Source: Nanobdellati archaeon (GTDB taxonomy: Archaea; B1Sed10-29; JAGVWA01). From it: a stretch of 36,880 nucleotides of DNA. The notes under the pieces are model-generated. The model was not told where the DNA came from, did no database searches, and worked only from the letters and a program-made list of their open reading frames with translations. How positions within the stretch are numbered: position 1 is the first letter of the stretch; the number at the start of each line of letters is the position of its first letter. Shown one piece after another: positions 440 to 27,812 of this stretch. Location of the stretch: contig JAGVWA010000020.1 in NCBI GenBank assembly GCA_018304505.1, forward strand, positions 1-36,880, in the 5' to 3' direction. A program made the translations under genes and the position numbers.

Positions 440-1573
440 ATGGGAATTCGTGGGCAGGTGGCTGCGGAATACGTTCTCTTAGTCGGCCTGCTGTTGCTTT
501 TAATCACGCCGTTCCTGTACTTCGGTTTCCAGAGTTCTGGCCAGCAAAGCAGGCTGCTGCAGGCCGAAAAACTCGTTTCGGATCTGGCGCAGGCTGCTGA
601 TTACGTGTATTCGCAGGGGGCCGGTTCCAGGGTGACGGTTTCTGGCATTATTCCTGGCGGTGTGACTTTTGAGGACTCGTATATTGGTAAGCCGCCCAAC
701 GCTACTGGCAACATTACCTCGAAGATCATTAATCTCGTGTTGCAGATAAACGGAATTGATCATGATGTTTGGAAGGAAACTGGTGCGGAGTTGTGTATTA
801 GCAGTCAGTGGCCTAGCGATTTTGGCGGCGCCTTTACAGGACCGGTTTTGTTTACGATAGAGGTTGAGGATGAGGGTTGCGTTTCAATTCTTCCGTTCGA
901 CGTGGGCTTCTTTGCAGAGCCACCAGTCATTGTTACTGATTGTATTACAGTGGGCGCGTCAGCGGGTTTCGTGATTACCCTAACCAATAATGATGAGGCA
1001 AACCCGGTAACGATAAGCGTTTCCGGTAGCGGCGCAGGCAGCAGCTTCATGTCGTTCAACAACACGAACGTGACGATTCCGGCAGACGGCACGGAAAAAA
1101 TACTTATGACGATAACGATTCCCACGGGGACATCGTTGGGTGTGCACTTTGGAAGCGTGGTTTTCCAGAGCAACGACACGGTTCAGGAAGTGCCGGTTGA
1201 CATCCTTGTTTGCGGCACGACTGATGGAAACCAGACAACAGAAGAGTGCTGTAATGCAACGTTGCTGAATTACACGATAGGAACGTTCGAGGATGAGGCT
1301 TGCTCTATTGCAGAAACAGTTTTTTACAAGCCAAGGACGACGGTTTTCAGCAGCACAGGTTGGCTTCCAGCTTCTAATCTGACCCTGGATTTAGATCACT
1401 CGAATACGAGCTCGGCAATTGGTTTCCCGGTCATTATCGCGGCAAATTCCACTGGTGGATTTAGTTACACATGGAATCCTGCCTTGCAGCCTGCCGATAA
1501 TTACTCAGTTTCGGTGACTGATGGCAACATCACAAGGTCAAATAATTTGGTGGTTAATGCATGTCCAACATAG
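440..1573 (+). CDS. Class III signal peptide minor pilin-like protein with Ig-like C-terminal domains
   Basis: N-terminus RG|QVAAEYVLLVGLLLLLI (Gly cleavage site, +5 Glu, hydrophobic helix); beta-rich Thr/Asn/Ser C-terminal region with many N-x-S/T sequons. Confidence 0.8.
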   Translation: MGIRGQVAAEYVLLVGLLLLLITPFLYFGFQSSGQQSRLLQAEKLVSDLAQAADYVYSQGAGSRVTVSGIIPGGVTFEDSYIGKPPNATGNITSKIINLVLQINGIDHDVWKETGAELCISSQWPSDFGGAFTGPVLFTIEVEDEGCVSILPFDVGFFAEPPVIVTDCITVGASAGFVITLTNNDEANPVTISVSGSGAGSSFMSFNNTNVTIPADGTEKILMTITIPTGTSLGVHFGSVVFQSNDTVQEVPVDILVCGTTDGNQTTEECCNATLLNYTIGTFEDEACSIAETVFYKPRTTVFSSTGWLPASNLTLDLDHSNTSSAIGFPVIIAANSTGGFSYTWNPALQPADNYSVSVTDGNITRSNNLVVNACPT

Positions 1574-4500
1574 CTCGAAGTTTGATGGTTGCCATGTTAG
1601 TGGTCTTGCTTATGTTTACAGGTATTGCTACTGACGCGACGATGTCTTACTATGACAGCGGTTCATCGTCAAGCCCAAAAATTCGACATTGGGATGAAGT
1701 GTCATGGTCAAGCGTGAGTAGTGCCGTGAGTACCGGGAACAACGATAACTTTCATGTTTTGAAAGCTTCACCTGTAAAGGATGAATTCATCCTCGCAGTT
1801 TCTGATTCTAGTAAGGATGTTAATGTGCAGGTGTACAACGGCTCTTCATGGGGAAATTTGGTTGAAGTGAGTATAGGCATCAATGATGCGGAGCAGCGTG
1901 GTTTTGATGTTGCTTATGAGTCGTTGTCTGGGGATGCGGTTATTGCTTATGGTGATGATCCCACGGATGGGATGTATTATCGTGTGTGGAATGGTTCTTC
2001 GTGGTCTTCGCAGGCGACGGTTTTTACGCACCCTAGTTCGGAGCCCGAGTGGGTTTCTTCGGCTTCGAATCCTTTTAGTGATGAGATTGTTGTTGTGTCG
2101 TTGCATCAGAATGGTGATGCGTATGCTGTGGTTTGGAATGGGAGTGCGTGGGGGGGTGAGTTTGAAATTTCTCCTAAGATTACGGATATTGATTCTACGT
2201 CGCCAGATGTTATGCCAATGGACGTGATTTATGAACAGCAGTCGGGCAGGGCTGTTGTGGTGTATGCAGAGGCTGTTACCACGCCACGTTACAGGATTTG
2301 GAATGGTTCTTCATGGAGTGCCGCGTCGAGCTTGAATTCTGTTGGATCTAGCGACGTGAAATTCATAAGGTTGGCCACAGACCCGAGCTCTAACACGATT
2401 TTGATGGGCAGCCTCGACGGTGGCAGCGATTTGAATGTGCAGGTATGGAATGGTAGCTCCTGGGGGACGAACACTGAATTGGATGACAGCATTGAAGGGA
2501 GCGTCGAAATGCACTTCGATGTTGCTTTTGAATCGCTATCTGGAAAGGGAATGGTATTGTTTGGCGACTTAGATCAGAATACCGCCGAGTATTATACATG
2601 GACTAGTGGTGGCGGTTGGAGTGCTTCGGCCCTTGCAGCAAGTGGAAATGATGACCCCCAGGTAGTCGAGTTAGAGGCCGACCCGAACAGCAACGAAATT
2701 TTTGGAATGATCGTTGACGTGCTCCTTGACGTGTCTGTTCAGAGGTGGACTGGTTCTGCATGGGTTGATTTCCAGGCAGTGGAACTTGGATCCAAGGCCA
2801 ATATGCACCCATTCGACATTGAATTCAAGCGTTATGTGCCGTCTGTTGCCAACGCTGTCACATTTGTTGACCCAACGCCTGCTAACGGATCTACAGTTAT
2901 CGTTGACAACGTTTTCATTAACGTTACGACGAACTTCGCCGGTTCAACAGGTTTGTTAGAGTGGAACGGCGTTAATGAATCAATGACTGTTGGCAACGCG
3001 ACAAATTTCTATAAAAGCAAAACTGGCCTTGCTAATGGTGTTTACACTTACCGTGTTTATGTGAACCATACAAATGGAACGTTCTATGTGTCTGAAACGC
3101 GAACTGTAGAAATCAGCGTGCTTGTGGTGTTTAATGGTACGGCGATGATGTCTTATTATGATGCTGGGCTCTTAGCGTTTCCGCAGATCCGCAGGTATAA
3201 TGGAAGTTCCTGGGGTGCTGCGGATAGTGCATTTGATACCGGCGGCAATGACAAGTTCCACGTGCTGGAATCTGCAACGACACGAAATGAGTTTGCTTTG
3301 GCTGTACAGGATGGAAGTGCTGATGTTAATGTGCAGATCTTTGATGGCGTTTCATGGGGTAACCTGTTGGAAGTTACTACAGCAGTAGATGAAACTGGCC
3401 AGAGGGGATTTGACATGGCCTATGAAACACTATCTGGAGACTTAATTATAGCTTACGGCAGCAATAACGACAACGAAGTCAGGTACAGGGTCTGGAACGG
3501 CAGCACATGGACTAGCGAGGCCTTTGCCATCAAGAATTCTAGCGCTACAACCGAGGCACAGTGGATAAGGCTTGTACCAAGTCCGTTAACAGATGAGGTC
3601 ATCCTAGTTGCAGGTCATGAAGATGGCGACGGCTTTGTCCAGGTCTGGAATGGAAATTCGTGGACAAACAACATTGAAATTTCAGCAAATCTTGAAGGCC
3701 TAGAAGGAACGGACACTGACACAATGGCCTTTGATGCAATTTATGAACAGCAATCGGGTCGCGGGGTAGTTGTTTACGCAGAGGATGGGTCAAGCAGTCC
3801 GAAATACAGGACATGGAATGGTTCATCTTGGTCTTCTGAGTTGAGCTTGAACAGCGTTGGTAGTAGTGATATGCGCTGGATTCGTTTGGCTGCAGACCCT
3901 GGCTCGGACAGAATCATTATGGCGAGTGTCGATTCCAGCAGCGATTTGAATGTGCAGGTTTGGAGTGGGTCTTCTTGGGGAAGCAACACTGAGCTTGATG
4001 GAAGCATTGAAAGTTATACAACAAGGACGTTTGACGTCGCTTTCGAGACGAGCAGTGGCACTGGCTTGCTGTTGTTCGGCGACTCGGATCAGGATAGGGC
4101 AGAGTACTATACATGGACTAATACTAGCGGATGGAGCACATCCGCACTTGCAGCCGCTGGCACCACTGATCCAAAAATGGTCCGCTTGGTTTCGAGCCCT
4201 GCTAGTGATGAAATGTTTGGAATGATCATTGACGATGGCAGTGACGTTAGTGTGCAAAGGTGGACGGGCTCTGCATGGACTGATTTTTTAGAGGTCGAAA
4301 CAGGCTCGATAGCCCTCAATTTCCCATTCGCAATCGTTTATGGCAAGGCGAATGTGACTCCACCAGCTGTTGGAAACCAGGTTACGTTCGTTGCGCCAAC
4401 CCCTGCAAGCGGCGCGGACTTGAATGCAACATCGTTAGTAATAAACGTCACGACAAACTTCAACGGCTCTACGGGAATTCTTGACTGGAACGGAACAAAT

Positions 4501-5940
4501 CAGACGATGGTCAATGCTAGTGCTACGAATTACTATCAGAACAAAACTGGCCTTGCTAATGGTCTTTACACTTACCGTGTTTATGTGAACCACACAAATG
4601 GAACGTTCTATGTAACAGAGGCACGCAACGTCACGATAAACTTCACGTTTGACTATAATCCTGGTTCCCTGACGGTCTCGCAGAAAAATCTGACAAATTG
4701 CCCAACCAGGATATGTATTAAGATCACGAAGAGCAAGCCCAGTACGTACAGCAAGATCCTACTCGATCCTGGGAACGTGACGCAGCTGCAGAACCTGAGC
4801 ATTTCAGAGGACGAGCACATCGAGTATTATAACTTGACGACGACTGACTTGACGGGAAACTGGACAGTCCAGGTTTCGGAACTGTTCTGTCGGCTAGACC
4901 TTGAATTCAACTTAACTGTGCTTGATCAACCCGTCAACGAAACCGGCGACGGAGAACCGCCGGATGACGATGATTGTACAATATTCGCTATTGATGACGA
5001 TCAGGATGAGTTGCAGGTCATCGACCTGTTCGGGTCGCTGAACATCACGATTATTGGTGAAACTAGAACGAGCAGTGGGAAATTGATTGACGAGATCGAG
5101 TCACTAGAAATGATTGGCGAAGATCTCTACGGCGCAACAGACATTGGAGGTAAGAATTCAAGGTTCTACAAAATCAACCCCAAAACAGCACAGACAACCC
5201 TCATCGGCGATACTGGGTATGAGGACATTGAAGGCCTTGCATATGATGAAATCAATGGCATAATGTATGCAATTAGCGGCGCCACAGATCAACTTTTAAC
5301 AATAAACATAACCACCGGCGCTGCTACCGCGATCGCTAACATAAGCCTGAACGTGAAAATCGAAGGCCTGGCTTACGACGCAACAGAGAATGTGTTGTAT
5401 GCGGCTGACGACTCGACGAATAAGTTGTTAAAGATCAATATAAGCACTGGCATTGCAACAGATTTGGGGCTTATCCAACTTGATGGTGAAACGTTGACGC
5501 ACATTGAGGCGCTCGAAATTCTACCCTCCAGCATGTTGATCGGAGCAAACGACAAGACCGGAGTAATAGTGTCGATAAGCAAAACCAACGCCGTAGCAAC
5601 GAGACTGACGCCCGACAACACACACCCGGATTATGAGGGCATGGTGTGCTCACTAACGGTGTCTCTTGACGACATCTGCGTTGACAGGGACAACGATGAC
5701 ATTTGCGACAACATTGACGCGTGTGTTGATGAAGACGATGACGGTGAATGCGACGATGTCGACATGTGCATCGACGATGACGACGATGATGACTGTGATG
5801 ACGTTGACGACATATGCATAGATAGGGACCATGATGAAGATTGTGATGACGTTGACGCTTGCGTTGATGAAAACGATGACGGCAAATGCGACCTTGGGGT
5901 GTGTGATGACGATGACAATAATGATTTCTGCGATGGCTAG
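1561..5940 (+). CDS. Large secreted putative adhesin (two WNGSSW-repeat propeller-like modules, two Ig-like domains, C-terminal propeller-like region, Asp/Cys-rich tail)
   Basis: Sec-type signal peptide; repeated V/IWNGSSWS blades; internal duplication of about 508 aa; GLAYD-type repeats near the C-terminus; six CxDxD/NxxxxCD repeats; no C-terminal TM. Confidence 0.85.
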   Translation: MSNIARSLMVAMLVVLLMFTGIATDATMSYYDSGSSSSPKIRHWDEVSWSSVSSAVSTGNNDNFHVLKASPVKDEFILAVSDSSKDVNVQVYNGSSWGNLVEVSIGINDAEQRGFDVAYESLSGDAVIAYGDDPTDGMYYRVWNGSSWSSQATVFTHPSSEPEWVSSASNPFSDEIVVVSLHQNGDAYAVVWNGSAWGGEFEISPKITDIDSTSPDVMPMDVIYEQQSGRAVVVYAEAVTTPRYRIWNGSSWSAASSLNSVGSSDVKFIRLATDPSSNTILMGSLDGGSDLNVQVWNGSSWGTNTELDDSIEGSVEMHFDVAFESLSGKGMVLFGDLDQNTAEYYTWTSGGGWSASALAASGNDDPQVVELEADPNSNEIFGMIVDVLLDVSVQRWTGSAWVDFQAVELGSKANMHPFDIEFKRYVPSVANAVTFVDPTPANGSTVIVDNVFINVTTNFAGSTGLLEWNGVNESMTVGNATNFYKSKTGLANGVYTYRVYVNHTNGTFYVSETRTVEISVLVVFNGTAMMSYYDAGLLAFPQIRRYNGSSWGAADSAFDTGGNDKFHVLESATTRNEFALAVQDGSADVNVQIFDGVSWGNLLEVTTAVDETGQRGFDMAYETLSGDLIIAYGSNNDNEVRYRVWNGSTWTSEAFAIKNSSATTEAQWIRLVPSPLTDEVILVAGHEDGDGFVQVWNGNSWTNNIEISANLEGLEGTDTDTMAFDAIYEQQSGRGVVVYAEDGSSSPKYRTWNGSSWSSELSLNSVGSSDMRWIRLAADPGSDRIIMASVDSSSDLNVQVWSGSSWGSNTELDGSIESYTTRTFDVAFETSSGTGLLLFGDSDQDRAEYYTWTNTSGWSTSALAAAGTTDPKMVRLVSSPASDEMFGMIIDDGSDVSVQRWTGSAWTDFLEVETGSIALNFPFAIVYGKANVTPPAVGNQVTFVAPTPASGADLNATSLVINVTTNFNGSTGILDWNGTNQTMVNASATNYYQNKTGLANGLYTYRVYVNHTNGTFYVTEARNVTINFTFDYNPGSLTVSQKNLTNCPTRICIKITKSKPSTYSKILLDPGNVTQLQNLSISEDEHIEYYNLTTTDLTGNWTVQVSELFCRLDLEFNLTVLDQPVNETGDGEPPDDDDCTIFAIDDDQDELQVIDLFGSLNITIIGETRTSSGKLIDEIESLEMIGEDLYGATDIGGKNSRFYKINPKTAQTTLIGDTGYEDIEGLAYDEINGIMYAISGATDQLLTINITTGAATAIANISLNVKIEGLAYDATENVLYAADDSTNKLLKINISTGIATDLGLIQLDGETLTHIEALEILPSSMLIGANDKTGVIVSISKTNAVATRLTPDNTHPDYEGMVCSLTVSLDDICVDRDNDDICDNIDACVDEDDDGECDDVDMCIDDDDDDDCDDVDDICIDRDHDEDCDDVDACVDENDDGKCDLGVCDDDDNNDFCDG
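3018..4613 (+). repeat. Near-identical 72-bp repeat pair (3018-3089 and 4542-4613) in the two Ig-like domains
   Basis: CAAAACTGGCCTTGCTAATGGT...GGAACGTTCTATGT with 2 mismatches, offset 1524 nt. Confidence 0.9.
5677..5937 (+). repeat. Six Cys/Asp-rich thrombospondin type-3-like repeats
   Basis: CVDRDNDDICD, CVDEDDDGECD, CIDDDDDDDCD, CIDRDHDEDCD, CVDENDDGKCD, CDDDDNNDFCD. Confidence 0.8.
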
Positions 5941-5997
5941 CGGGTATTAATGAATTTCTAAAGCATGTTTAAATAGCTTCTCTGATTCTTTTACAAC

Positions 5998-6408
5998 ATG
6001 TCGGTTTCGCGCGGCCAGGCCTCATTTGAGTTCCTTGGGGCGTTCACAGTATTCTTTGTCTTAGTGTTGATTTTCATCGGCCTGTTTTTTTCGCGGGCAG
6101 GCGACGTCGTTGAACTAAATTCCCTTTCGAGGACGGTCCAGTTCGCCGATGATATTTCGAACAAGATCAACATCATCAGCGTTGAGGGCCATGGTGCCGC
6201 TATTGAATTCGATCTCGACGAGCAATTGTACGGCGAAAACTACACACTGGAATTGAATACCACAAACCGCGTCCTCGAGGTCATTACGGAAGACGAGACT
6301 GAGTACGCAACAGCATATCTGATTACGGACAACGTTGAAGTGATTTCATGGAACTATGGCGGCACCCAAGTTATTGAAAACGTGAACGGCAAGGTGATTG
6401 TGAAGTGA
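5998..6408 (+). CDS. Minor pilin-like protein, class III signal peptide
   Basis: RG|QASFEFLGAFTVFFVLVLIF. Confidence 0.8.
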   Translation: MSVSRGQASFEFLGAFTVFFVLVLIFIGLFFSRAGDVVELNSLSRTVQFADDISNKINIISVEGHGAAIEFDLDEQLYGENYTLELNTTNRVLEVITEDETEYATAYLITDNVEVISWNYGGTQVIENVNGKVIVK

Positions 6409-6857
6409 ATCTAAAACAAAGATCAAAAGGACAACTGTTCCTTGCCGACGTGTCCCTGGCTGTTCTGGTGTTTGCCCTGATGCTCCTTGTAGCGTTCTTC
6501 CTGTTCAATTCCTTGATGGCGCGTACCGGCAACACCGTGGCGTACACGAAGCTCGAAAAAAAAGCAGAGTTTGTTACTGACGCAGTTTACAACAGCATCT
6601 CTGACAACGCGGTGTTCGACAACACGTCAACGTTCAATTTCTTCCAGCAAAACCAGACGCAGGTAGACGCGCTGTTCGACATCAGCCACAATTTCACGAT
6701 CAAGCTAACTGATTCTGCTGGCGCGGTGTTGCTGCTGAACAACGCGAGCATGTCTGTCGGGCAGGATCCAGCTAGGGACGTCAGGAACATCGTTACTGCC
6801 AGGCGCATTGGTTTACTCAATGGCACAGCTGCAAAGGTGGTGATGAAGATATGGTAG
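6405..6857 (+). CDS. Minor pilin-like protein, class III signal peptide
   Basis: KG|QLFLADVSLAVLVFALMLL; GTG start overlaps the previous stop. Confidence 0.78.
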   Translation: MNLKQRSKGQLFLADVSLAVLVFALMLLVAFFLFNSLMARTGNTVAYTKLEKKAEFVTDAVYNSISDNAVFDNTSTFNFFQQNQTQVDALFDISHNFTIKLTDSAGAVLLLNNASMSVGQDPARDVRNIVTARRIGLLNGTAAKVVMKIW

Positions 6858-7306
6858 ACGGGCGAGGCAGCACAGGGAGGGGCTTTGTCTTTTCGTTTGA
6901 TGCGGTTGTTGGTTTAGTGTTCATGATACTCTTTGGGAGCTTTATTATATCCTATCTTGACCAGTCAGACTTTTCCCAATACAGGCTGTACGAGAGGTAT
7001 GCAGCTGCAGATAGCGGTTTGACCGCCATCATCGCATCGGGATCTGTGCAGACTGCTGTCAATGAATCAATACAAGTTGGGTCGCAAACAGCTGGGGCGA
7101 CCTTGCGTGGTGTAATGGGCCTGCTCGAAGGCGGGGCTAGGTATCAATTGCAAATCGAGGTATTCAACTCAACAGCCAAGTACGTTGACATTTCAGAAAG
7201 CACGCCACGCGGAAGGATACCAACGACGCGTGACACGGTTTTGGTTTCAAGAAAGGTATTCAGTTATGGGGGAGATTATGGAATCGCAACGCTCAGGACA
7301 TGGTGA
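6851..7306 (+). CDS. Minor pilin-like protein, class III signal peptide
   Basis: RG|FVFSFDAVVGLVFMILF; C-terminal ...LRTW resembles neighbour's ...MKIW. Confidence 0.78.
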   Translation: MVDGRGSTGRGFVFSFDAVVGLVFMILFGSFIISYLDQSDFSQYRLYERYAAADSGLTAIIASGSVQTAVNESIQVGSQTAGATLRGVMGLLEGGARYQLQIEVFNSTAKYVDISESTPRGRIPTTRDTVLVSRKVFSYGGDYGIATLRTW

Positions 7307-7313
7307 TGGCGCA

Positions 7314-8384
7314 ATGATAAACGGAGGCAAGGGCTTCATTTTCACGTTGGCAGCAACCGCGGCATTCATTATGATTTTAGCAGCCATGGTGTTCTTCATT
7401 ATCAACCAGGCGCAGAAGAGCCCCCTGCTCATTAATGTCAAGCAGAACATGGGCCTTCAGGATTCTGTTTTCAAGCTTTTGAATGACAAGCTCATGTTAA
7501 ATCATTCACGGACAAGCAACACCTATATGATTACAGAGGCGTATGCCCCGACCAAGCAGTCGTCGTTGGCAACAAAGGTGGCGTCGATAGCCGCGATTGC
7601 AAATACCACAGCATTCCGGTCTGGCCTGAACTTCTCGTTCAACAACCAGGGCTTCTCGCTGCTGAACCTGAGGTCAAAGGGTTTCTCCTATTACTGGTTG
7701 TCCAACACGGATCTGCTGATTGAGGCGAACTCAAGCCATGAAAACTTCACAGCGTTGAATTTGTCTTTCTCCACAACCGCGAACTCAAACAACATAACCA
7801 ACAACTGCTCAGGCAGCGGTAATGTAACAATCACCGTGGCTTCAAATAATCAACAAGCGTCAGCGACACCAACAGGGAGCTGTACGATAACCATCAATTA
7901 CCCAAGTAATTCGATTGCCGTGAACTACATCAGCGACAATTCCTGGAACGTGTCGTTCGCTGGCATGCCAGACAACGCAGTAATCACGGCTAACATTTCA
8001 GTAAGCCCAGGCACGAATTTCGCAGACTTCAGCAGCATAATTTACAGGGCAACGCTGACGACATCCAACCCTGGAGTTACGGAACCAACATACCCTGGCA
8101 CAACTGCTGCGATAAAATACTTTGGAAACGTCACTGTGGAAGCCCAGGTATACCAAGTAATCGTTATTGATTATGACAATGATTCGGTGTATGAATCGGC
8201 ATACTTTGACGTGGATCAGGACAACGCCTTTAACAGCAGTGCAGACCTTAAGTTAGTGAGGCGGGGCGTAGCAATATATTTAAACAACAGGGTCCTTCTA
8301 GTGGACAGTGGCACTGCGGAAATCACCTTACTGAGTAAGCTTGGCGTTTTCGCAAAACGAGGGGAAGTTACAGTGATTCGATGA
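7314..8384 (+). CDS. Large minor pilin-like protein, class III signal peptide
   Basis: Start moved to ATG 7314 after a GGTGAT RBS; KG|FIFTLAATAAFIMILAAMVFFII; Asn/Ser/Thr-rich extracellular domain; DYDNDS and DVDQDN motifs. Confidence 0.75.
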   Translation: MINGGKGFIFTLAATAAFIMILAAMVFFIINQAQKSPLLINVKQNMGLQDSVFKLLNDKLMLNHSRTSNTYMITEAYAPTKQSSLATKVASIAAIANTTAFRSGLNFSFNNQGFSLLNLRSKGFSYYWLSNTDLLIEANSSHENFTALNLSFSTTANSNNITNNCSGSGNVTITVASNNQQASATPTGSCTITINYPSNSIAVNYISDNSWNVSFAGMPDNAVITANISVSPGTNFADFSSIIYRATLTTSNPGVTEPTYPGTTAAIKYFGNVTVEAQVYQVIVIDYDNDSVYESAYFDVDQDNAFNSSADLKLVRRGVAIYLNNRVLLVDSGTAEITLLSKLGVFAKRGEVTVIR

Positions 8385-9127
8385 AGGAAAACATTGAGAC
8401 GAAGGCTGACCAGCTGTATAGCATGGTGATAAAGCAGAAGAAAATAAGCATTAGCGAGGTAGCCAAGGTCTTGGACATGGAGCCGCAGCTTGCAGAAAAA
8501 TGGGGCAAGGTGCTGGCAGAGGACAAGTTCATAAGAATGGTTTACCCGTCAAACATCCTGCAGGAGCCGTACCTTGAAGCTGTGGCAGAAATTGCTGAAG
8601 CCCCAAAGACCAAAAAATCAGACAACATCTTCGACATCTTGAGAAAAGGCCTCGTTGGTTTCGAGGAATGGAAGGAGGAAAAAATGCAGATGAAGGCAAA
8701 GCTCGAGAAAATAGAGCAGACGGAAAAGGAGTTCTTCAAAAAGCACAAGGAGGAAATTAAGGCGCAAACAGGGATGAAACACAGGGCCAAGGCGCTCCCA
8801 AGCAGCCTCATGGACAGGCAGGCCGCCAAGAGGCTTGAAAACCTGAGGCTCGTCAATGAAGCAGAAGCCAAGAAGGCAGAAGGCGCACTACTGGAAATGT
8901 ACAACGCAGGCCTTGTTGGAAAAAAACTCAGCGATGATGAACTAAAGCAGGTCCTCAGTGATCCGCAAAAGGCGATTGAAAATGCGCAAGCGCCAGACAA
9001 GGCAAAAGAAAGCATGGACAAGCGATATGTAAAAGCGATATCCGCAAGGGCAAAACAAGTAGTGACAAAACAGGTGGTCAAGAGCAAACCAGAGAAAGCA
9101 CCCCGGATAAGCAGCAAAAAGAAGTGA
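8381..9127 (+). CDS. Pilus-locus cytoplasmic protein with N-terminal wHTH-like domain and Lys/Glu coiled coil
   Basis: IETKADQLYSMV..KKISISEVAKVLDM..LAEKWGKVLAEDKFIRMVYP; translationally coupled to both neighbours. Confidence 0.7.
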   Translation: MKENIETKADQLYSMVIKQKKISISEVAKVLDMEPQLAEKWGKVLAEDKFIRMVYPSNILQEPYLEAVAEIAEAPKTKKSDNIFDILRKGLVGFEEWKEEKMQMKAKLEKIEQTEKEFFKKHKEEIKAQTGMKHRAKALPSSLMDRQAAKRLENLRLVNEAEAKKAEGALLEMYNAGLVGKKLSDDELKQVLSDPQKAIENAQAPDKAKESMDKRYVKAISARAKQVVTKQVVKSKPEKAPRISSKKK

Positions 9128-10650
9128 TGGAGAAGGGATTAATAATGGATAAAGAGTTAGAGGGCTATGAAATAACCGCAGCGGGCCTGGTGGCAAGGAT
9201 CTCGATCGTGGACGAGGGAAAGTTCGTGCCGCGCTACAAGGTAACGTTTCCCCAAATCGGTCACGCCACGTTAATGATTCTGGATAGCGTCAGGGACGAA
9301 TTGATTAAGCAGACAACGGTAAAGGCCAAGGAGATACTTGATCCAAAAATTGCGAGGATCATACAGAAGAGGTTCGCTGACAAGGCCGAGGAATTAGTGT
9401 CGCGTTATTTTCCTGGCATTGATACAATAAGCAAGGGCGAGCTCGTTGGCCTTCTCGTGAACGACATGGTTGGCCTTGGAGAAATCGAGGTGCCCCTAAA
9501 TGACGACGCCCTCGAGGAAATCGTAATCAACAACGCTGCAGAGCCCCTGTGGGTTTACCACAAGCGCTACGGCTGGTTGGTGACTAACATTACTTTGGAG
9601 GACGAGGAAAAAATAAAAGACTATGCAAACCTAATCGGCCGGCGGGTTGGAAGGCAGATAAATACCCTGACACCGCTTATGGATGCTCACATGCTCGAGG
9701 GAGACCGTGTCAACTCAACCCTGTTCCCGATTTCTACAAAGGGCAACACGGTAACAATTAGGAAATTTGCGAGAAAACCGTGGACTGTGACAGACCTTAT
9801 TCAACTGAAAACCTTTAATGATGAAATTGCGGCCTTGCTCTGGCTGGCAATGCAGTATGAATTAAACGTGCTTGTCAGCGGTGGAACCGGTAGCGGTAAG
9901 ACGAGTGCGCTCAACGTGCTCATGCCCTTTGTTCAGCCAAATCAGCGCATCTTGTCAATTGAAGACACGCGCGAATTGAACCTGCCGAGTTATCAGCATT
10001 GGGTTCCAATGACGACAAGGGATCCGAATCCCGAGGGCAAGGGGGAAGTAACAATGCTTGACCTGATGTTGAATGGGCTCAGGATGAGGCCCGACCGGAT
10101 AGTTGTCGGTGAAATCAGAAAGCGGGCAGAGGCCGAGACCTTGTTTGAAGCGATGCACACCGGCCACGCGGTATACTCAACGCTGCACGCAGATCGTGCT
10201 GAACAGGTCAAGCGAAGGCTGACAACGCAACCAATAGACATTTCAGAAGCCCTTCTGGAATCATTGCACATCGTGCTGGTGCAGTACAGGCACCGTAGGC
10301 TGGGCATAAGAAGAACCCTTGAGCTGGCAGAAGTAGTCCCGGTCGGCGCCGGGGGTGATGAAGTTACCATAGACATGCGCACGCTTTACAGGTGGAAGCC
10401 GCGTCAGGACACTATTATGAGAGAGAAGCCGTCTGTGCGGCTATTCGGCGAAATCGAGTCACTGACGGGTTTGCTTGAGTCGGAAATCAAAGAAGACCTG
10501 GAACAAAAGAAGTCAATTTTGAAGTGGATGGTTAACCAAAACATAAACGACGTTGACGTGGTCGGGACTCTGATGGCCAGGTACTACCGTGACCCCAGCG
10601 ATTTAATCAAGCTCGCAAGGATTAATAAGCCATTCACGCCCGAAGAATAG
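9124..10650 (+). CDS. CpaF/TadA/VirB11-family type IV pilus assembly ATPase
   Basis: Walker A GGTGSGKT, SIEDTREL, LRMRPDRIVVGEIR, His box TGHAVYSTLHA; alternative starts 9127/9145. Confidence 0.95.
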   Translation: MMEKGLIMDKELEGYEITAAGLVARISIVDEGKFVPRYKVTFPQIGHATLMILDSVRDELIKQTTVKAKEILDPKIARIIQKRFADKAEELVSRYFPGIDTISKGELVGLLVNDMVGLGEIEVPLNDDALEEIVINNAAEPLWVYHKRYGWLVTNITLEDEEKIKDYANLIGRRVGRQINTLTPLMDAHMLEGDRVNSTLFPISTKGNTVTIRKFARKPWTVTDLIQLKTFNDEIAALLWLAMQYELNVLVSGGTGSGKTSALNVLMPFVQPNQRILSIEDTRELNLPSYQHWVPMTTRDPNPEGKGEVTMLDLMLNGLRMRPDRIVVGEIRKRAEAETLFEAMHTGHAVYSTLHADRAEQVKRRLTTQPIDISEALLESLHIVLVQYRHRRLGIRRTLELAEVVPVGAGGDEVTIDMRTLYRWKPRQDTIMREKPSVRLFGEIESLTGLLESEIKEDLEQKKSILKWMVNQNINDVDVVGTLMARYYRDPSDLIKLARINKPFTPEE

Positions 10651-10673
10651 CGGTTTCAAATAGCGGTTTTACA

Positions 10674-11567
10674 ATGATTAAGTTACCTTTCCTCCCAATA
10701 AGCATCGAAAGGCTGGAGCGCATATCGAGAGTTTTTCTAGGGGTCGGGAAGCAACTTGAAGGCATGTTTCCGTTTCTTGAATCAGACCTGATCCAGCTTG
10801 AGGAGGACATTGAAGCGAAGCAGTACCTGTCCATCGCAATAATCGCCTCGATTTATGGATTTGTAATGGCGTTAGTGCTAACGTATTTACTGGTAACGAC
10901 TACCCTTAGTGGATCGGCCGGCCAGCTGATGATTTATATTCCAGTAGCAGGGCTCGTATTGGGGCTAGTGACATTTCTCCAGACCGTTTACTATCCAAGG
11001 TTGCTGCTGCAGAAAAAGGCAAAACGCCTGAACCGTGATTTGTTGTTTGCCTTGCGCCATATTCTTGTGCAGCTGAATTCAGGAGTGCCATTGTACGAGT
11101 CAATGGTCTCTGTGGCATCCGGGGACTATGGCGTTGTGAGCGAGGAATTTGGAAAGGCGATTAAGGAAATCACTAGCGGTGGCGTGTCTCAGACTGACGC
11201 GTTGGAGAACATGATAGTCAGAACCCCGTCAACGTTCTTGCGCAGGGCGGTTTGGCAGATCTCCAACGCGCTCAAGGCCGGCTCTGACCTTGTTATGGTA
11301 ATGTCTGATCTTGTAAAGGATTTTTCAGAAGAGCAGAGGGTGACGATCCAGCGCTTTGGCAGGGAACTGAGCCCGTGGGCCCTGATGTACCTTCTGCTTA
11401 CAGTGGTTTTTCCGAGCATGGGTGTCGCCCTCATTATTATTCTGAGCTCGTTTATAGGGTTTGAAGTCGGCGCAGACTTCCTTCTCTCCCTTACAGGGGC
11501 CTTTATAGCGATGCAGTTCTTCTTCATTAAGTTCCTAAAAAGCAAGAGGCCGGACGTGAGAATATGA
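10674..11567 (+). CDS. Type II secretion F / TadB-TadC-like membrane platform protein
   Basis: DLLFALRHILVQLNSGVPLY...YGVVSEEF; multiple TM segments; follows the ATPase. Confidence 0.9.
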   Translation: MIKLPFLPISIERLERISRVFLGVGKQLEGMFPFLESDLIQLEEDIEAKQYLSIAIIASIYGFVMALVLTYLLVTTTLSGSAGQLMIYIPVAGLVLGLVTFLQTVYYPRLLLQKKAKRLNRDLLFALRHILVQLNSGVPLYESMVSVASGDYGVVSEEFGKAIKEITSGGVSQTDALENMIVRTPSTFLRRAVWQISNALKAGSDLVMVMSDLVKDFSEEQRVTIQRFGRELSPWALMYLLLTVVFPSMGVALIIILSSFIGFEVGADFLLSLTGAFIAMQFFFIKFLKSKRPDVRI

Positions 11568-12577
11568 AGCTCAGCGACAGGGTATACTTTACTGTGCAGA
11601 AGTTTTTGCCCAGGTTCTATGTTGAAATAATTAGCAGGAAGATACGGTATGCCAACATCAAGATCCAAAAAGAGGTGTGGGCAGGCTTTACATTCATGGT
11701 ATCGCTTTTCATTTCGATATTAATCACAGTGGTTATGGCTTCTCAAACCCAGTCGCAGGGTCTGCTGATAGCGTTTTTCCTTGGGGTGTTCTTCGCAGTG
11801 TCGTATACTATATATGTTATTGTGCAGCTAATGTCAGACCAGCGTACGCAACAGATAGAAAATGTATTGCCAGACGCGCTGAGGTTGATTTCGGCCAACA
11901 TAAAAGTTGGCATTACGCCTGACAAGGCGCTGTTTCTGTCAGCGCGCCCTGAGTTTGGGGTCTTCAGCGACGAGATACTACGCGTAGCTGAGGAAACGAT
12001 AGCTGGAAAGACAATTATGCAGGCTATGGTAAGAATGACCGATAGAACCGAATCGGTCTTGTTGAAGCGCGTCGTGGAGCTCATTAATGAGGGCCTGAAT
12101 TCAGGCGGCGAGCTGGCTTCCTTGCTTGAGAAAACCGCTGACGACATAAGGGTGTCAAGTGTATTGAATCAGGAGATACAATCAAACATAGGCAGCTACG
12201 TGATTTTCATGATGCTCGCCGTACTCATCGCAGCGCCGATGCTCTACGCAACGTCGATGAATTTTATTGTGTTGACAGATAGCATAAAGCAGTCCATAGG
12301 CCTGGAAGCGCTTTCGCAAGCAGCAGTGACAGGCGTCAACATCCCATTCATCGGGTCATCCAAGCAGATAAGCATAGACTTCGGGGCCCTGAGGCTGTTT
12401 TCAGTGATCAACATTTCGATCTCGGCGTTCTTTGCGTCCATGCTGCTCGGTATATTCAGGGATGGCCAGGAGCGCACAGGCCTACCCTATGTGCCGGTTT
12501 TCATCATTGGCGGTCTCCTTGTTTATTTCATCGCAGACGCGCTCATTGGGGGCCTGATGGCGGGTTTCTTCAGCTAA
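11564..12577 (+). CDS. Type II secretion F / TadC-like membrane platform protein
   Basis: IENVLPDALRLISANIKVGITPDKAL...RPEFG; SGGELASLL. Confidence 0.9.
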   Translation: MKLSDRVYFTVQKFLPRFYVEIISRKIRYANIKIQKEVWAGFTFMVSLFISILITVVMASQTQSQGLLIAFFLGVFFAVSYTIYVIVQLMSDQRTQQIENVLPDALRLISANIKVGITPDKALFLSARPEFGVFSDEILRVAEETIAGKTIMQAMVRMTDRTESVLLKRVVELINEGLNSGGELASLLEKTADDIRVSSVLNQEIQSNIGSYVIFMMLAVLIAAPMLYATSMNFIVLTDSIKQSIGLEALSQAAVTGVNIPFIGSSKQISIDFGALRLFSVINISISAFFASMLLGIFRDGQERTGLPYVPVFIIGGLLVYFIADALIGGLMAGFFS

Positions 12578-12596
12578 TTGCGCGCTCATGGTAAGC

Positions 12597-12656
12597 TTTA
12601 TAAAGGAATCATGCCTTTTTACAATTAAATCCTAATAATGGGAAATCCTAATAATG
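12597..12656 (+). promoter_or_regulatory. TATA box (TTTATAAA 12597-12604) and 14-bp direct repeat upstream of pilin 1
   Basis: AAATCCTAATAATG at 12627-12640 and 12643-12656; GAGGTG RBS before ATG 12670. Confidence 0.55.
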
Positions 12657-12669
12657 AGAGGTGTATAAT

Positions 12670-13128
12670 ATGAGAAAAGGACAAGGCGCGTTCGAGTACA
12701 TCATGACCTACGGATGGGCAATCATCATCGTGATTATTGTCGGAATCATCCTGTACAACTCAGGTGTGTTCGGCCAAGCAACAGAAAGCCAGCAAGGGTT
12801 CATTAGAATCAGGCCCGCAGACTTCATATTCGGGGTCAACAACGCCTCAGTGAATGGAACCTCAACAATTGTCTGGGACAACGTCGCAGGACAGTCTTTG
12901 AAGGACGTCAACATCACCTATGATGGCGACCAAGACGGCGTCTTTGAAGACCAGGGATTCAGCGGAAACATCAAGGCAGGAAAAAGAGAAACGGATTCGC
13001 TGTTCATTTCAAGTCTTGAGTGTGGCGATGGAGATGCAGCGGTTGTTGACGCAAAGGTTTCATACAGAACAGAAGCGGGCGTAACAAGGACTGAAACTGG
13101 AACCATTAGAGGAACCTGTTCAGCTTAA
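12670..13128 (+). CDS. Archaeal type IV pilin 1 (candidate major pilin)
   Basis: MRKG|QGAFEYIMTYGWAIIIVIIVGIILY; sequons NAS/NGT/NIT; C-terminal Cys pair. Confidence 0.9.
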   Translation: MRKGQGAFEYIMTYGWAIIIVIIVGIILYNSGVFGQATESQQGFIRIRPADFIFGVNNASVNGTSTIVWDNVAGQSLKDVNITYDGDQDGVFEDQGFSGNIKAGKRETDSLFISSLECGDGDAAVVDAKVSYRTEAGVTRTETGTIRGTCSA

Positions 13129-13138
13129 AACCACAACT

Positions 13139-13178
13139 AACCCCGCACGGGGTTTTTTATCTATTTTTTTATTTTTTA
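13139..13178 (+). terminator. Hairpin plus T-tract terminator after pilin 1
   Basis: AACCCCG-CA-CGGGGTT followed by several oligo-T runs. Confidence 0.7.
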
Positions 13179-13221
13179 TTTCCCATAGCAGCAGCAATTT
13201 TTTCAAATAGTAGTAGCAATG

Positions 13222-13229
13222 TTTATAAA
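13222..13229 (+). promoter_or_regulatory. TATA box for pilin 2
   Basis: TTTATAAA about 50 nt upstream of ATG 13279. Confidence 0.5.
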
Positions 13230-13278
13230 TGCGCGTGCCCTTATTTTGTATAAACAACAAACGCAGAGAAAGATTCAC

Positions 13279-13737
13279 ATGAGAAAAGGTCAAGGCGCGT
13301 TCGAGTACATCATGACCTACGGATGGGCCATACTCATCATCATTATAGTGGGCATCATCCTGTACAACGCAGGCGTTTTTGGCCAGTCGACTGAAAGCCA
13401 CCAGGGCTTCATTAAGGTACGGCCTGCCGATTTCTCATTCGGGGTCAACAACGCCTCAGTAAATGGGACTTCAACTATCGTGTGGGATAATGTCGCGGGC
13501 CAGAACCTGAAGAACATGAACATCACTTATGACGGGGATCAAAACGGGGTCTTTGAAACACAGGGCCTAACCGGAACAATCGGCACCGGCAACAGAAGGA
13601 CAGACTCTGTTTTCATTTCAGGCCTCAGTTGCCAAGACGGCGAGGCCGCAGTCGTTGACGTCAAGGTTAGCTATACCACGGAAACAAAGATCACCAAGAC
13701 AGAAACAGGAACCATCAGGGGAACTTGTGAAGAATGA
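13279..13737 (+). CDS. Archaeal type IV pilin 2 (close paralog of pilin 1)
   Basis: MRKG|QGAFEYIMTYGWAILIIIIVGIILY; colinear with pilin 1 and sharing FGVNNASVNGTSTIVWDNVAGQ. Confidence 0.9.
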   Translation: MRKGQGAFEYIMTYGWAILIIIIVGIILYNAGVFGQSTESHQGFIKVRPADFSFGVNNASVNGTSTIVWDNVAGQNLKNMNITYDGDQNGVFETQGLTGTIGTGNRRTDSVFISGLSCQDGEAAVVDVKVSYTTETKITKTETGTIRGTCEE

Positions 13738-13776
13738 GCAAGGCACTTGTGAAGAATGAGCAAGGAACTTGCGAAG
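13721..13776 (+). repeat. 22-bp tandem repeat (2.5 copies) spanning the pilin 2 stop codon
   Basis: GAACTTGTGAAGAATGAGCAAG / GCACTTGTGAAGAATGAGCAAG / GAACTTGCGAAG. Confidence 0.9.
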
Positions 13777-13846
13777 CCTAATCCTGATTGGTAGCTTTTT
13801 TCTTTATCATCATAAGCCTTATAAACAGCCACTGCCTTTTTAGAAC

Positions 13847-14290
13847 ATGACGGTAGGCAAAAAGGGCCAAGGTGCAATGGAATACCTGATGAGTTATGGC
13901 TGGGCGCTAATAATAGTTTTGATCATCGGAATTGTGCTGTTTAACTCAGGCGTGTTCGACCAGAACGCCGAAAGCGCGACAGGCTGGATGCGCATACGGC
14001 CGAGCAACTTTAGATTCTCAATGACAAACCCGTCGCAGATCGCGTGGGACAACGTTGCCGGGCAGTCACTGCGAAATGTGACATTCACATACTCGGGGGA
14101 CTGCGTTGAACCTGCAGCGACAATTGGAAACATGGCTCAGGGCGCGCGAATAATAGACGCTGTCACGTGTAGCACAACCTGCTCGCCAATCGGCGCGGGC
14201 CTCGTGGTAAACGCAACAGTTGAGTATAGGACAGAGGACACCATTGAGCACAAGGAAGCTGTGAAAATCAGGGCGCTGTGTGAAACATGA
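13847..14290 (+). CDS. Archaeal type IV pilin 3 (more divergent paralog)
   Basis: KKG|QGAMEYLMSYGWALIIVLIIG; shared WDNVAGQSL motif; TATA-like CTTATAAA at 13818-13825 suggests a leaderless transcript. Confidence 0.9.
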   Translation: MTVGKKGQGAMEYLMSYGWALIIVLIIGIVLFNSGVFDQNAESATGWMRIRPSNFRFSMTNPSQIAWDNVAGQSLRNVTFTYSGDCVEPAATIGNMAQGARIIDAVTCSTTCSPIGAGLVVNATVEYRTEDTIEHKEAVKIRALCET

Positions 14291-14320
14291 TTTGAGCAAA
14301 ACGCAAATGAGTGATGATTT

Positions 14321-14995
14321 ATGGATAGGGTAAAAACCAACATAAGCGGCTTCGATGACTTAATAGACGGCGGGATTCCGAGGGGGTCATCGGTGCTGCT
14401 GTCAGGCCCATGCGGCGCTGGCAAGGTTTACTTTGCATCGGAATTCCTGTACAAGGGAGCAGAGCCGAGCATTTATTACGCGTTTGAGCAGAGCCAGGAA
14501 TCCATGAAGGAAAACCTGTCGGTCTTCAATTGGGACATGGACAAGGCCATAAAGGGAAAGCAGTTCAACATTATCCAGAGCGAATTGTATCAATTTGAGT
14601 CATTCCTGTCAGACCTGGAGGACAACATTGAAAAAACGGGCGCAGCGAGGGTCGTCGTTGATTCATTGACAGTGATTGGGGAATTCTTTGACTCGCCGTA
14701 CAAGCTGCGCAAGAGCCTGCTTGAGCTGAAACGGATGGTAAAAAACAATGACGCGACGGCTATCCTATTGTCTGAAACACCCGCAAACACTGATAAGCTT
14801 AGCACGTTTGGCTCAGAAGAATTCGTTCTCGATGGTGTCATCCTGCTGCACTTGATAAAAAGCCAGACTGAGCTCAACCACGCGGTGAGTGTTCGAAAAA
14901 TGATCGGCACGAACTTTGCCTCAACAATACACCCGTTCGAGATCCGTAACACAGGGCTTAAGGTGCACAAGATCCGGGAACTCAGGGGCTTATGA
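14321..14995 (+). CDS. KaiC/RecA-superfamily single-domain ATPase (RAD55/GvpD/FlaH-like)
   Basis: RVKTNISGFDDLIDGGIPRGSSVLLSGPCGAGKV, Walker B RVVVDS, DGVILL...VRKM. Confidence 0.88.
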   Translation: MDRVKTNISGFDDLIDGGIPRGSSVLLSGPCGAGKVYFASEFLYKGAEPSIYYAFEQSQESMKENLSVFNWDMDKAIKGKQFNIIQSELYQFESFLSDLEDNIEKTGAARVVVDSLTVIGEFFDSPYKLRKSLLELKRMVKNNDATAILLSETPANTDKLSTFGSEEFVLDGVILLHLIKSQTELNHAVSVRKMIGTNFASTIHPFEIRNTGLKVHKIRELRGL

Positions 14996-26933: not shown

Positions 26934-27812
26934 ATGATTGAATACCTTGCAATAGCAATCGCCGTCCTGGGTACCGCATACTTTGCCAAAACCGACTACC
27001 TGACAGGCTATTTACCTGACGGGCCGATGCATGCAATGATCTTGTCAGGTATTGCCTTTGTGCCGTTTGTTTACTCGGGGATTGTTTTGGAAGTATATGC
27101 CCTGGCCGCGGTTGTTTTCGCAATCGGCTTTGGATTTTACACCCTCGGAAACCTCGGCGGCGGGGACGTCAAGCTGTTTACTGCCCTGGCGTTGCTGTTG
27201 CCGTTCCACCAAAGCTTTGGCAATTCGATTTCTGGTTTATTCGGCGTACAGGCGCAGACATTGAGTTACCCGTTCGTTATTTCAATCTTTGTCTTGTCAG
27301 GCTTGCTGTTCATGGCAGTGATGCCACTGATGTTTTTCAGAAAAATCATGGGCAAGAGAAAAAAGGTAGAGAAATTTGAACTGAAGACACAGCGTGGGGT
27401 GCTGCTTGCAGCCCTTGTTGTCCCATTGGCCATGTTGTGGTACCAGTACATTTCGTTTGCGGTTGTTGTTTTCTTTCCCCTCGTGTTTGCAATGTTCATT
27501 ATGCCATTCAAATCAGATTTTGTGAAGCACATCTTTGCCGAGAAGAAGTTAGTTAGTAAGCTTGATGATGACGATGTGTTGGCCCTTGAGGTGATCCCAC
27601 AGCACGTCAAGAATAAGTTGGGGCTGCGCTGGAGAAAGACCTTCACAACCGGAGAAATAAAATCGTTAGTCAGGAAGGCAGGCAAGCACGGCATCAAAAC
27701 GATTATGGTCTGCGAGAACATGCCAAAGTTCGTCCCGTATATTTTCACCGCGCTTCTCCTGAATCTTGTTTTCGGCGACCTTATTGTTTACGTGCTTTTT
27801 AGTGCGCTGTAG
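26934..27812 (+). CDS. Prepilin peptidase, A24 family (FlaK/PibD/EppA-like)
   Basis: Catalytic Asp motifs KTDYLTG and LGGGDVKL; C-terminal PKFVPYIF; many TM helices. Confidence 0.9.
   Translation: MIEYLAIAIAVLGTAYFAKTDYLTGYLPDGPMHAMILSGIAFVPFVYSGIVLEVYALAAVVFAIGFGFYTLGNLGGGDVKLFTALALLLPFHQSFGNSISGLFGVQAQTLSYPFVISIFVLSGLLFMAVMPLMFFRKIMGKRKKVEKFELKTQRGVLLAALVVPLAMLWYQYISFAVVVFFPLVFAMFIMPFKSDFVKHIFAEKKLVSKLDDDDVLALEVIPQHVKNKLGLRWRKTFTTGEIKSLVRKAGKHGIKTIMVCENMPKFVPYIFTALLLNLVFGDLIVYVLFSAL

Follow-up and report, generated by a model that had tools for sequence, protein, structure and literature searches.

How is a very large exported protein kept on a cell when it has no membrane anchor of its own, and why should it be encoded in the midst of minor pilin genes? 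The question is raised by a contig of 36,880 nucleotides (nt) from a Nanobdellati archaeon (JAGVWA010000020.1, assembly GCA_018304505.1), the whole of which was analysed and is termed here the window. At the front of a type IV pilus operon in this window, a gene for a protein of 1459 amino acids (aa) lies directly behind the first of five minor pilin genes. A first-pass annotation had read these six genes as a pilus tip complex analogous to that of bacterial PilY1. We conclude that the large protein is probably exported by the Sec pathway and held on the pilus by the C-terminal domain of the first minor pilin (pilin 1), so presenting its β-propeller heads for adhesion. Its position on the pilus and its ligand we infer. 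Host recognition and grip by DPANN archaea are mostly unexplained, and the locus provides a concrete candidate for an adhesin directed to a host or a surface.

A type IV pilus operon with five minor pilins

The six genes are part of a 14-gene type IV pilus operon on the + strand (440-14995), of which the range originally annotated (440-8384) is the front half; their reading as a type IV pilus module is thus upheld. Behind these genes come those for an ATPase, two platform proteins, three tandem paralogous pilins and a KaiC-like protein. The three pilins (12661-14290), where related loci show just one orthologue, are probably alternative major pilins. The junctions between genes range from -13 to +150 nt across the operon, and from -13 to +57 nt for the front ten genes (i.e. 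-13, +57, -4, -7, +7, -4, -4, +23 and -4 nt in order through 440-12577). A T2SSE-family ATPase together with a platform split over two adjacent genes, an A24 peptidase gene and five minor pilin-like genes is the constitution of archaeal system 1 (clade 1), and the locus is probably an Epd-like ('system 1') pilus operon of a small-genome archaeon of DPANN type.

The open reading frames (ORFs) and their N-termini confirm the five pilin-like genes, each with the motif of a class III signal peptide, and the exported protein of 1459 aa. Each minor pilin has a single N-terminal hydrophobic stretch, placed immediately behind the K or R and G of the signal peptide. A loose regular expression for pilin-like N-termini matches 74 of the 1092 ORFs of the source genome, a background far too low for five adjacent matches to arise by chance. 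The gradation of the acidic residue to which the first-pass annotation drew attention (E5, E5, D6, D6 and none) is real and conserved. Examined by eye, pilins 1 and 2 have E or D at +5 in 9/9 readable loci, and pilins 3 and 4 have D or E at +6 in 10/10 loci, while the acidic residue is absent from pilin 5 in 10/10.

Pilin 1 comprises a pilin N-domain, a middle immunoglobulin (Ig)-like domain and a C-terminal Ig/transthyretin-like domain (aa ~257-377) that contains an invariant cysteine, Cys375; its orthologues align over their full length. PF04021 matches pilin 1 alone among the five, and then below its cut-off (E 0.0019, 18.5 bits compared with 23.7). Pilin 3 has a weak match to DUF7287 (E 9.1e-4), again below the cut-off. 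The ORF of pilin 5 as listed opens at 7185 (7185-8384), and the most likely start is the ATG at 7314 because this lies 7 nt past the preceding stop codon and fits the length of the orthologues (338-373 aa).

A variable slot behind the first pilin

T2SSE ATPases are present in 18/18 genomes of the order, and nine genomes other than the source contain an orthologous operon, with ATPases that are 54-66% identical. The genes follow a shared order: pilin 1, an optional large protein with a signal peptide, four pilins, a protein resembling the 248-aa protein of the window, the ATPase, two platform genes, the major pilin and KaiC. Nine loci including the window were readable, the locus of G006 being left out as it is cut by the end of its contig. 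Six of these nine have a large protein in the slot behind pilin 1 (1459, 894, 743, 732, 679 and 510 aa), so the embedding of such a protein in the minor-pilin operon recurs within the order. In all six pilin 1 is long, at 351-377 aa; in the three loci where the slot is empty (G005, G004 and G015) it has 137-140 aa.

The proteins that fill the slot are of different kinds. That of G011 contains a ConA-like Laminin_G_3 domain (E 8.9e-30), and that of G010 contains the propeller of the window together with a core of 470 aa that is also present in G007 and G008. In the alignment the sole element common to all six is Ig-like domain 3 of the large protein. When a profile of this domain, termed the 'plug', was searched against the 31 genomes of the class, 12 matches were found in ten of them. 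The six slot proteins, and no others, make up the strong matches (E<=1.3e-28), the remainder having E>=4.8e-8.

We note also that in G004 the minor pilin at the fourth position (L134 10296-13043) is expanded to 915 aa; with its von Willebrand factor A (VWA) domain (E 1.3e-14) it corresponds, on the archaeal side, to the bacterial pilus proteins that bear such domains.

Predicted docking of the large protein on pilin 1

The co-occurrence of slot proteins with a long pilin 1 pointed to pilin 1 and the shared Ig domain, and these were therefore chosen for prediction of a complex. The chains were residues 35-377 of pilin 1 (i.e. lacking the helix) and residues 1025-1135 of the large protein. The prediction passed with a score of 0.77, the best of three controls giving 0.00. 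Of 157 solved complexes 116 attained the mark, as did 2 of 215 mismatched pairs, counts that apply only roughly here as purpose-made alignments of six rows were used. Contacts agreed by at least 50% over three runs, with a predicted local distance difference test (pLDDT) value of at least 69 for the partner. A sequence search gave no solved complex of a similar kind, so it is unlikely that the predictor merely reproduced a known structure. A pilin interface is thus predicted for the large protein.

In the predicted complex the C-terminal domain of pilin 1 is docked on the conserved Ig-like domain 3, using pilin residues 267-376 and, on the large protein, residues 1030-1059 and 1087-1126. The contacts of lowest error include those of pilin residues 372 and 373 with partner residues 20 and 21 respectively, which would bring the invariant Cys375 into register with the invariant Cys23 of the partner (i.e. 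Cys1047 of the large protein). The cysteine counts of pilin and Ig domain match in the relatives, being 1/1 in G010 and G008, and 2/2 in G011, G007 and G001. Such matching counts fit with an intermolecular disulfide in these relatives, without proving one. It is from the model that we infer binding of the large protein to pilin 1. The locus offers a predicted docking pair small enough for expression (~340 and ~110 residues), with two invariant cysteines, as well as a propeller head.

The docking would apply equally if the minor pilins formed a short stalk or stayed in the membrane, so that pilin 1 tethered the large protein at the cell surface in the manner of the Sulfolobus bindosome, and no measurement places the protein at a tip. 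Archaeal minor pilins are drawn at the pilus base in the available part of PMC4858521, and pilin 1 retains Glu5, so by the analogy with GspK it would not be expected as the subunit at the extreme tip. The model for the bindosome assembly ATPase matches the ATPase of the window at E 2e-44, far below the cut-off of that model. Against such a surface display, the three major-pilin paralogues behind the platform genes argue for a real filament, and bacterial minor-pilin sets are generally known to prime a filament and end at its tip, as is also described in the accessible part of the TM7x paper discussed below. We consider this explanation rather unlikely, and favor the presentation of the large protein on a pilus.

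Domain structure of the large protein

The N-terminus of the large protein is comparable with those of its orthologues, directly preceding the propeller in each. Reading it as a class III signal (ARS/LMVAML...) was set aside, as the orthologues have ordinary Sec-type ends before the first strand of the propeller. The only hydrophobic segment spans aa 1-29; beyond residue 30 the maximum Kyte-Doolittle mean over 19 residues is 1.35. There is neither a C-terminal membrane anchor nor a second hydrophobic segment, the C-terminus being the acidic tail, and since the first cysteine is at residue 1047 there is no lipobox. The hydrophobicity scan and the position of the first cysteine therefore reveal no hidden membrane or lipid anchor. 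Together with AlphaFold2 models and composition, they support the original description of an exported, anchorless protein in which propellers and Ig-like domains are combined with a tail of acidic character.

The protein contains a duplication (residues 27-525 and 528-1030), each half consisting of an 8-bladed propeller followed by an Ig-like domain. The propellers comprise eight repeats of ~50 aa with the motif W-x-G-S-x-W, and the AlphaFold2 model of the propeller plus Ig unit was built from an alignment of 39 rows. Domains homologous to Ig-like domain 1 occur in many giant proteins. The 8-bladed module is covered by none of the Pfam or NCBIfam families searched, and its profile gave 0 matches at E<=10 among sequences of the PDB. 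The AlphaFold2 models confirmed the propellers and the Ig-like domains, while the top structural matches of the 8-bladed module were generic. In structural comparison (VIA) the propeller aligned with the 8-bladed cd1 nitrite reductase at Z 25.8, with a root-mean-square deviation (rmsd) of 3.2 over 346 residues (model residues 1-402). With the 7-bladed PLL/PHL lectins of Photorhabdus the values were Z ~25 and rmsd 3.7 over ~313 residues (residues 40-392) at 12-14% identity, a comparison that covers the fold only, as the lectins have 7 blades and the module 8 repeats. Many unrelated propellers tie at the same Z, and thus sugar binding is a lead only. A protein atlas search with the propeller gave low recognition (1456) and just unnamed or weakly BNR_4-labelled clusters, and was not used.

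In the 6-bladed propeller, PF21959 (DUF6923) matches aa 1198-1298 above its gathering score (E 3.4e-7, 30.7 bits compared with a cut-off of 27), and 5234 library proteins match this region of the protein at E<=0.001. Foldseek matches the propeller with Pizza6, kelch and YWTD propellers. Cysteines at aa 1139 (4975) and aa 1363 (5647) flank it in the first and last strands, and may form a disulfide that closes the ring. The Asp/Cys-rich tail is modelled as disordered (pLDDT <50), and family searches with it at E<=10 gave no match. In composition it resembles thrombospondin-type-3 or MopE-like calcium- or metal-binding sequences, a resemblance and nothing beyond that. The large protein contains 40 N-x-S/T sequons, of which several fall within WNGSSW motifs.

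Exported and lacking an anchor, the large protein could alternatively be a free lectin or enzyme, released with the help of a pilus-like machine resembling the pseudopilus of type II secretion, where homologous ATPase, platform and minor pseudopilins are found. A single-membrane archaeon needs no second export step after Sec, however. Moreover, no catalytic domain was found among the Pfam and NCBIfam matches of the large protein, and both a docking domain and major-pilin paralogues are present. Free release is therefore very improbable, and retention of the protein on the pilus is preferred.

The propeller module in other genomes

The propeller module is widespread: of 7997 candidates scored, 242 proteins matched it at E<=0.001. 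A search for related loci with a propeller alignment of four rows confirmed 291 places in species-representative genomes; 80 of them were retained (20 archaeal and 60 bacterial), and the pilin-like N-termini around these were scored by a loose regular expression. In 14/20 archaeal and 8/60 bacterial loci the gene that encodes the module has two or more pilin-like ORFs within 5 kb. For the stricter acidic-residue class the corresponding numbers are 10/20 and 6/60.

In the archaeal locus L035, where the ATPase matches that of the window at E 5.8e-169, the module is fused to a pilin. Two proteins of 670 and 955 aa each have a class III signal peptide, the N-domain of the first pilin, an Ig domain and an 8-bladed propeller. 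The N-domain of the fusion matches the G010 pilin over residues 6-149 (E 4.65e-16), and the propeller matches the large protein of the window (E 3.8e-76). The propeller of the 955-aa protein (L035 4997-7864) is interrupted by a Cys-rich insert with putative metal-binding motifs of MopE type (PF11617, E 8.7e-16), a feature reminiscent of the Asp/Cys-rich tail in the large protein.

The module adjoins pilin clusters in Methanosarcinales, in bacteria of the candidate phyla radiation (CPR) and in Planctomycetota. Methanolobus proteins of ~1960 aa combine a VWA domain (PF00092, E 2.9e-38) with the propeller, and are flanked by pilin-like genes of DUF7287, DUF7288 and DUF7289. In L013/L018 an 850-aa homologue and a gene with an N-terminus that appears A24 peptidase-like on inspection come after six Pilin_N-type genes. 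Bacterial fusions of the module to pilin- or PilX-like N-termini (~565-620 aa) are encoded inside pilB-pilC-pilin operons in Moraniibacteria (L044), Amesbacteria (L059), Isosphaeraceae (L096), Phycisphaerales (L037) and a Planctomycetota metagenome-assembled genome (L046), and the module also lies inside a pil operon of Saccharibacteria (L062). PF10102 is annotated on P0005 and P0021, both relatives of the module. The other 58 loci, with fewer than two pilin-like neighbours, mostly encode giant bacterial proteins away from pilins, and there are proteins of 4342 aa (G045) and 711 aa (G040) that carry the module without evident pilus neighbours. The first-pass annotation would have homologues keep to pilus loci; this is not borne out, as 52 of the 60 bacterial loci have fewer than two pilin-like neighbours.

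The frequent presence of the module in giant surface proteins far from pilins raises the possibility that the large protein belongs to the envelope, perhaps as an S-layer-like protein, and that it is co-expressed with the pilus while attached to no pilin, either helping the filament through the wall or acting as an adhesin in its own right. An architecture of propeller plus Ig/PKD domains is found in a surface-layer protein of Methanosarcina (1l0q, Foldseek rank 50), and S-layer-like proteins are listed in archaeal pilus loci in the available parts of PMC4858521 and PMC13705601. Yet the large protein lacks a C-terminal anchor or second hydrophobic segment, and the content of the slot varies (lectin-like, propeller or none) in a way that is unlike a structural wall protein. 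The co-occurrence of slot proteins with a long pilin 1, the fusion in L035 and the predicted complex all argue for attachment to a pilin. We judge an envelope protein to be unlikely, and return to one that is carried by pilin 1.

A model for the display of the large protein

In the proposed structure the filament would be built from the three major-pilin paralogues, and the five conserved minor pilins would prime or decorate it. The C-terminal Ig-like domain of pilin 1 would act as a 'socket', gripping Ig-like domain 3 of the large protein (aa 1034-1122) by pairing of β-strands, perhaps with a disulfide from pilin Cys375 to the invariant Cys1047 as a lock. The two 8-bladed lectin-like propellers, the 6-bladed propeller and the acidic, Cys-rich tail could then be displayed as heads that bind a host cell or a surface. 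Our best guess is that host glycans are the ligand, because the fold is lectin-like and there is a precedent in PilX2 of TM7x. If the analogy with bacterial tips holds, one might conjecture that pilin 5 caps the stack, with pilin 1 and the adhesin just below it and thus near the tip.

A number of points weigh against this proposal. The score of the complex is the confidence of the model in itself, the alignments came from only six related genomes, one of the three runs gave 0.36 (compared with 0.78 and 0.77), and the packing of Ig on Ig is a generic arrangement. In the window the cysteine counts are 8 for the pilin and 3 for the Ig domain, the two proteins having 25 cysteines in total, so here the argument from cysteine parity fails. 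The genomes of the order are kin and not independent, and thus the division of six and three loci is a pattern rather than a statistic; moreover the propeller of the window occupies the slot of only one related genome (G010). The regular expression for pilins is loose, given its 74 matches in 1092 ORFs. The fold matches of the propeller are generic, lectins, nitrite reductase and WD40 proteins tying at Z 24-26. There are fewer than two pilin-like neighbours in 58 of the 80 propeller loci, suggesting that the module is a general surface-binding domain that has been repeatedly recruited by pili, and not one specific to them; a T2SSE ATPase lies within 10 kb in only 9/80. Lastly, a search for sequencing runs gave seven runs of DNA, none being on record as RNA.

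A more general scheme can be put forward tentatively, and is itself rather doubtful. In this scheme pilin 1 would be a standard socket that captures interchangeable Sec-exported heads by way of their Ig plug, perhaps with disulfide bonding, and the 8-bladed head would be a pilus adhesin module found across both domains of life (in CPR episymbionts, Planctomycetota and Methanosarcinales). If it were true, DPANN archaea could change the target gripped by their pili without altering the machinery.

Comparison with known pilus systems

The arrangement is similar to that of PilY1/PilC with FimU-PilVWX in the type IVa pili of P. aeruginosa, Neisseria and M. xanthus, in that a large anchorless protein with a Sec signal (assigned by inspection) is encoded in a minor-pilin operon. 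In common with PilY1 the large protein has a β-propeller and is predicted to bind a minor pilin, and relatives of its module in Methanosarcinales join VWA and propeller domains. By contrast with the single modified 7-bladed propeller of PilY1, it has two 8-bladed propellers and one 6-bladed, it has no VWA match, and its docking is predicted to occur through an Ig domain and not the propeller. The machinery also differs from that of bacterial type IVa pili, being archaeal: its signal peptides are of class III and its platform is encoded by two genes. None of the PilY1 models in Pfam and NCBIfam matches the large protein at E<=0.1. PilY1 is among the entries of the PDB. It is absent from the Foldseek and VIA matches shown, which does not exclude a likeness to the PilY1 fold. 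On the basis of sequence the large protein is not a relative of PilY1, and would work like it without being a member of the family. Thus from the original proposal of a PilY1-analogous tip complex the connection to a pilin is retained, through synteny, fusion and the predicted complex; kinship with PilY1 is not, and the placing at the tip is by analogy only.

Archaeal loci of clade 1 that combine five or more minor pilins with an ATPase, two TadC genes and large proteins of DUF2341 are described in the available part of Makarova et al. 2016 (PMC4858521), where those large proteins are proposed as PilY-like tip adhesins. In the available part of a 2026 survey (PMC13705601), system 1 is defined by two platform genes and is present in some DPANN, and adhesin-like proteins are reported in many archaeal subsystems, including the PilY-like arCOG03511. 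The locus of the window is like these in that its set of five or more minor pilins is accompanied by an ATPase, a pair of TadC-like platform genes and one large secreted protein. It is unlike them in the domain set of the large protein, in which no match to DUF2341 (PF10102; arCOG03508) was found. A limited search of the literature, in the portions accessible, found no variable slot, link to a long pilin, Ig plug with cysteines or cross-domain propeller, and in agreement with the first-pass annotation no archaeal equivalent has been characterized experimentally. As PilY-like adhesins were already proposed for archaeal pilus loci in 2016, it is the organization of slot and predicted docking that this locus would add.

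In TM7x (Saccharibacteria) the minor pilin PilX2 bears a propeller and is needed for efficient binding to the host, according to the available part of PMC11623550; this propeller is C-terminal, fused to the pilin, and is 7-bladed of RCC1 type and PLL-lectin-like (PMC11623550 and PMC12206443, likewise in part). Both cases present a lectin-like propeller from a type IV pilus operon of an ultrasmall episymbiont, and CPR loci (L044, L059 and L062) hold the module of the window itself inside pil operons. Compared by description, the two differ in that the propeller protein of the window is a separate Sec substrate and has eight blades. The presence of the module in CPR pilus operons, with a CPR propeller pilin that promotes host binding, suggests a common tool of ultrasmall symbionts in both domains.

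Loci related to that of the window contain a VWA-bearing fourth pilin (G004) and a slot protein with Laminin_G_3 (G011). They are similar in this respect to the modular pilins of Streptococcus sanguinis, where PilB has a vWA module and PilC a lectin module. Unlike these fusions, the module of the window is on a separate polypeptide that is predicted to dock. GspK-GspI-GspJ form the tip of the type II secretion pseudopilus, and the largest and last-encoded of these subunits has no conserved acidic residue. Pilin 5 is like it by description, lacking the acidic residue in 10/10 loci.

Features of the operon and its surroundings

The coordinates of the features are collected in Table 1. The other genes of the window are archaeal housekeeping genes (S19e, L31e, eIF-6, prefoldin, SRP54, FtsY, Pus10 and PcrB), which indicates a small-genome archaeon of DPANN type; the source genome has 917,116 bases in 21 contigs and is 92.79% complete. 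FlaI and TadA models also match the ATPase, below their cut-offs. The KaiC gene closes the operon in every related locus where the end of the operon is on the contig. The 248-aa protein has a middle part rich in Lys and Glu, and a match to the Pfam family dsDNA_bind (E 1.2e-9) that may merely mirror this composition.

Table 1. Positions of the pilus genes and of the domains of the large protein within the window.
Feature	Position	Strand	Remarks
Minor pilin 1	440..1573	+	377 aa, class III signal peptide MGIRG/QVAAE
Large exported protein	1561..5940	+	1459 aa; ORF overlaps minor pilin 1 gene by 13 nt
Sec-type signal peptide	1561..1632	+	aa 1-24, cut after GIA, by inspection
8-bladed β-propeller 1	1639..2820	+	aa 27-420; AlphaFold2 pLDDT 90.8, predicted template modelling score (pTM) 0.84
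Ig-like domain 1	2836..3123	+	aa 426-521; all-β in AlphaFold2 model
8-bladed β-propeller 2	3142..4335	+	aa 528-925; 55% identical to propeller 1 (alignment)
Ig-like domain 2	4348..4650	+	aa 930-1030
Ig-like domain 3, predicted 'plug'	4660..4926	+	aa 1034-1122; invariant Cys1047
6-bladed DUF6923-type β-propeller	4975..5667	+	aa 1139-1369; AlphaFold2 core pLDDT >89
Asp/Cys-rich tail	5671..5937	+	aa 1371-1459; 42 D and 12 C in 89 residues
Minor pilin 2	5998..6408	+	136 aa, RG/QASFE
Minor pilin 3	6405..6857	+	150 aa, KG/QLFLAD
Minor pilin 4	6851..7306	+	151 aa, RG/FVFSFD
Minor pilin 5	7314..8384	+	356 aa, KG/FIFTLA, without acidic residue
Conserved 248-aa cytoplasmic protein, upstream of ATPase	8381..9127	+	counterpart in 7/9 mapped related loci
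Pilus assembly ATPase (T2SSE family)	9124..10650	+	PF00437 E 4.9e-38
Platform protein gene 1 (T2SSF)	10674-11567	+	PF00482 E 2.9e-17
Platform protein gene 2 (T2SSF)	11564-12577	+	PF00482 E 8.3e-12
Three tandem paralogous pilins	12661-13128, 13279-13737, 13847-14290	+	155, 152 and 147 aa; KG/QGAFEY or KG/QGAMEY
KaiC-like ATPase, last operon gene	14321..14995	+	PF06745 E 2.1e-48
A24 prepilin (class III signal) peptidase	26934..27812	+	PF01478 E 1.5e-8; 12 kb downstream

Other type IV filament genes of the genome

The same 917-kb genome has seven matches to T2SSE-family ATPases (E<=1e-30) and 34 ORFs with a pilin-like N-terminus of the acidic type, a load of type IV filament genes that is unusually heavy for a genome of this size. 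A paralogous operon on contig C19 (L135, 6956-17763), with an ATPase that is 51% identical, encodes a first pilin of 801 aa with MG2/Ig-like domains and four more pilins, without a separate slot protein. On contig C9 (74741-84928) an ORF of 2383 aa with a class III pilin-like N-terminus (RG/QLSLE) is followed by five small pilin-like ORFs, and this group, downstream of a further T2SSE ATPase match (C9:68281-69657), may constitute a third set of giant head plus five minor pilins. A further ORF, of 652 aa on contig C21 (21957-23915), has an N-terminus RKG/QGAFEYIMTYGWAIII that is nearly identical to those of the major pilins of the window. Its product may resemble a major pilin extended by a large C-terminal domain, and could enter the same filament.

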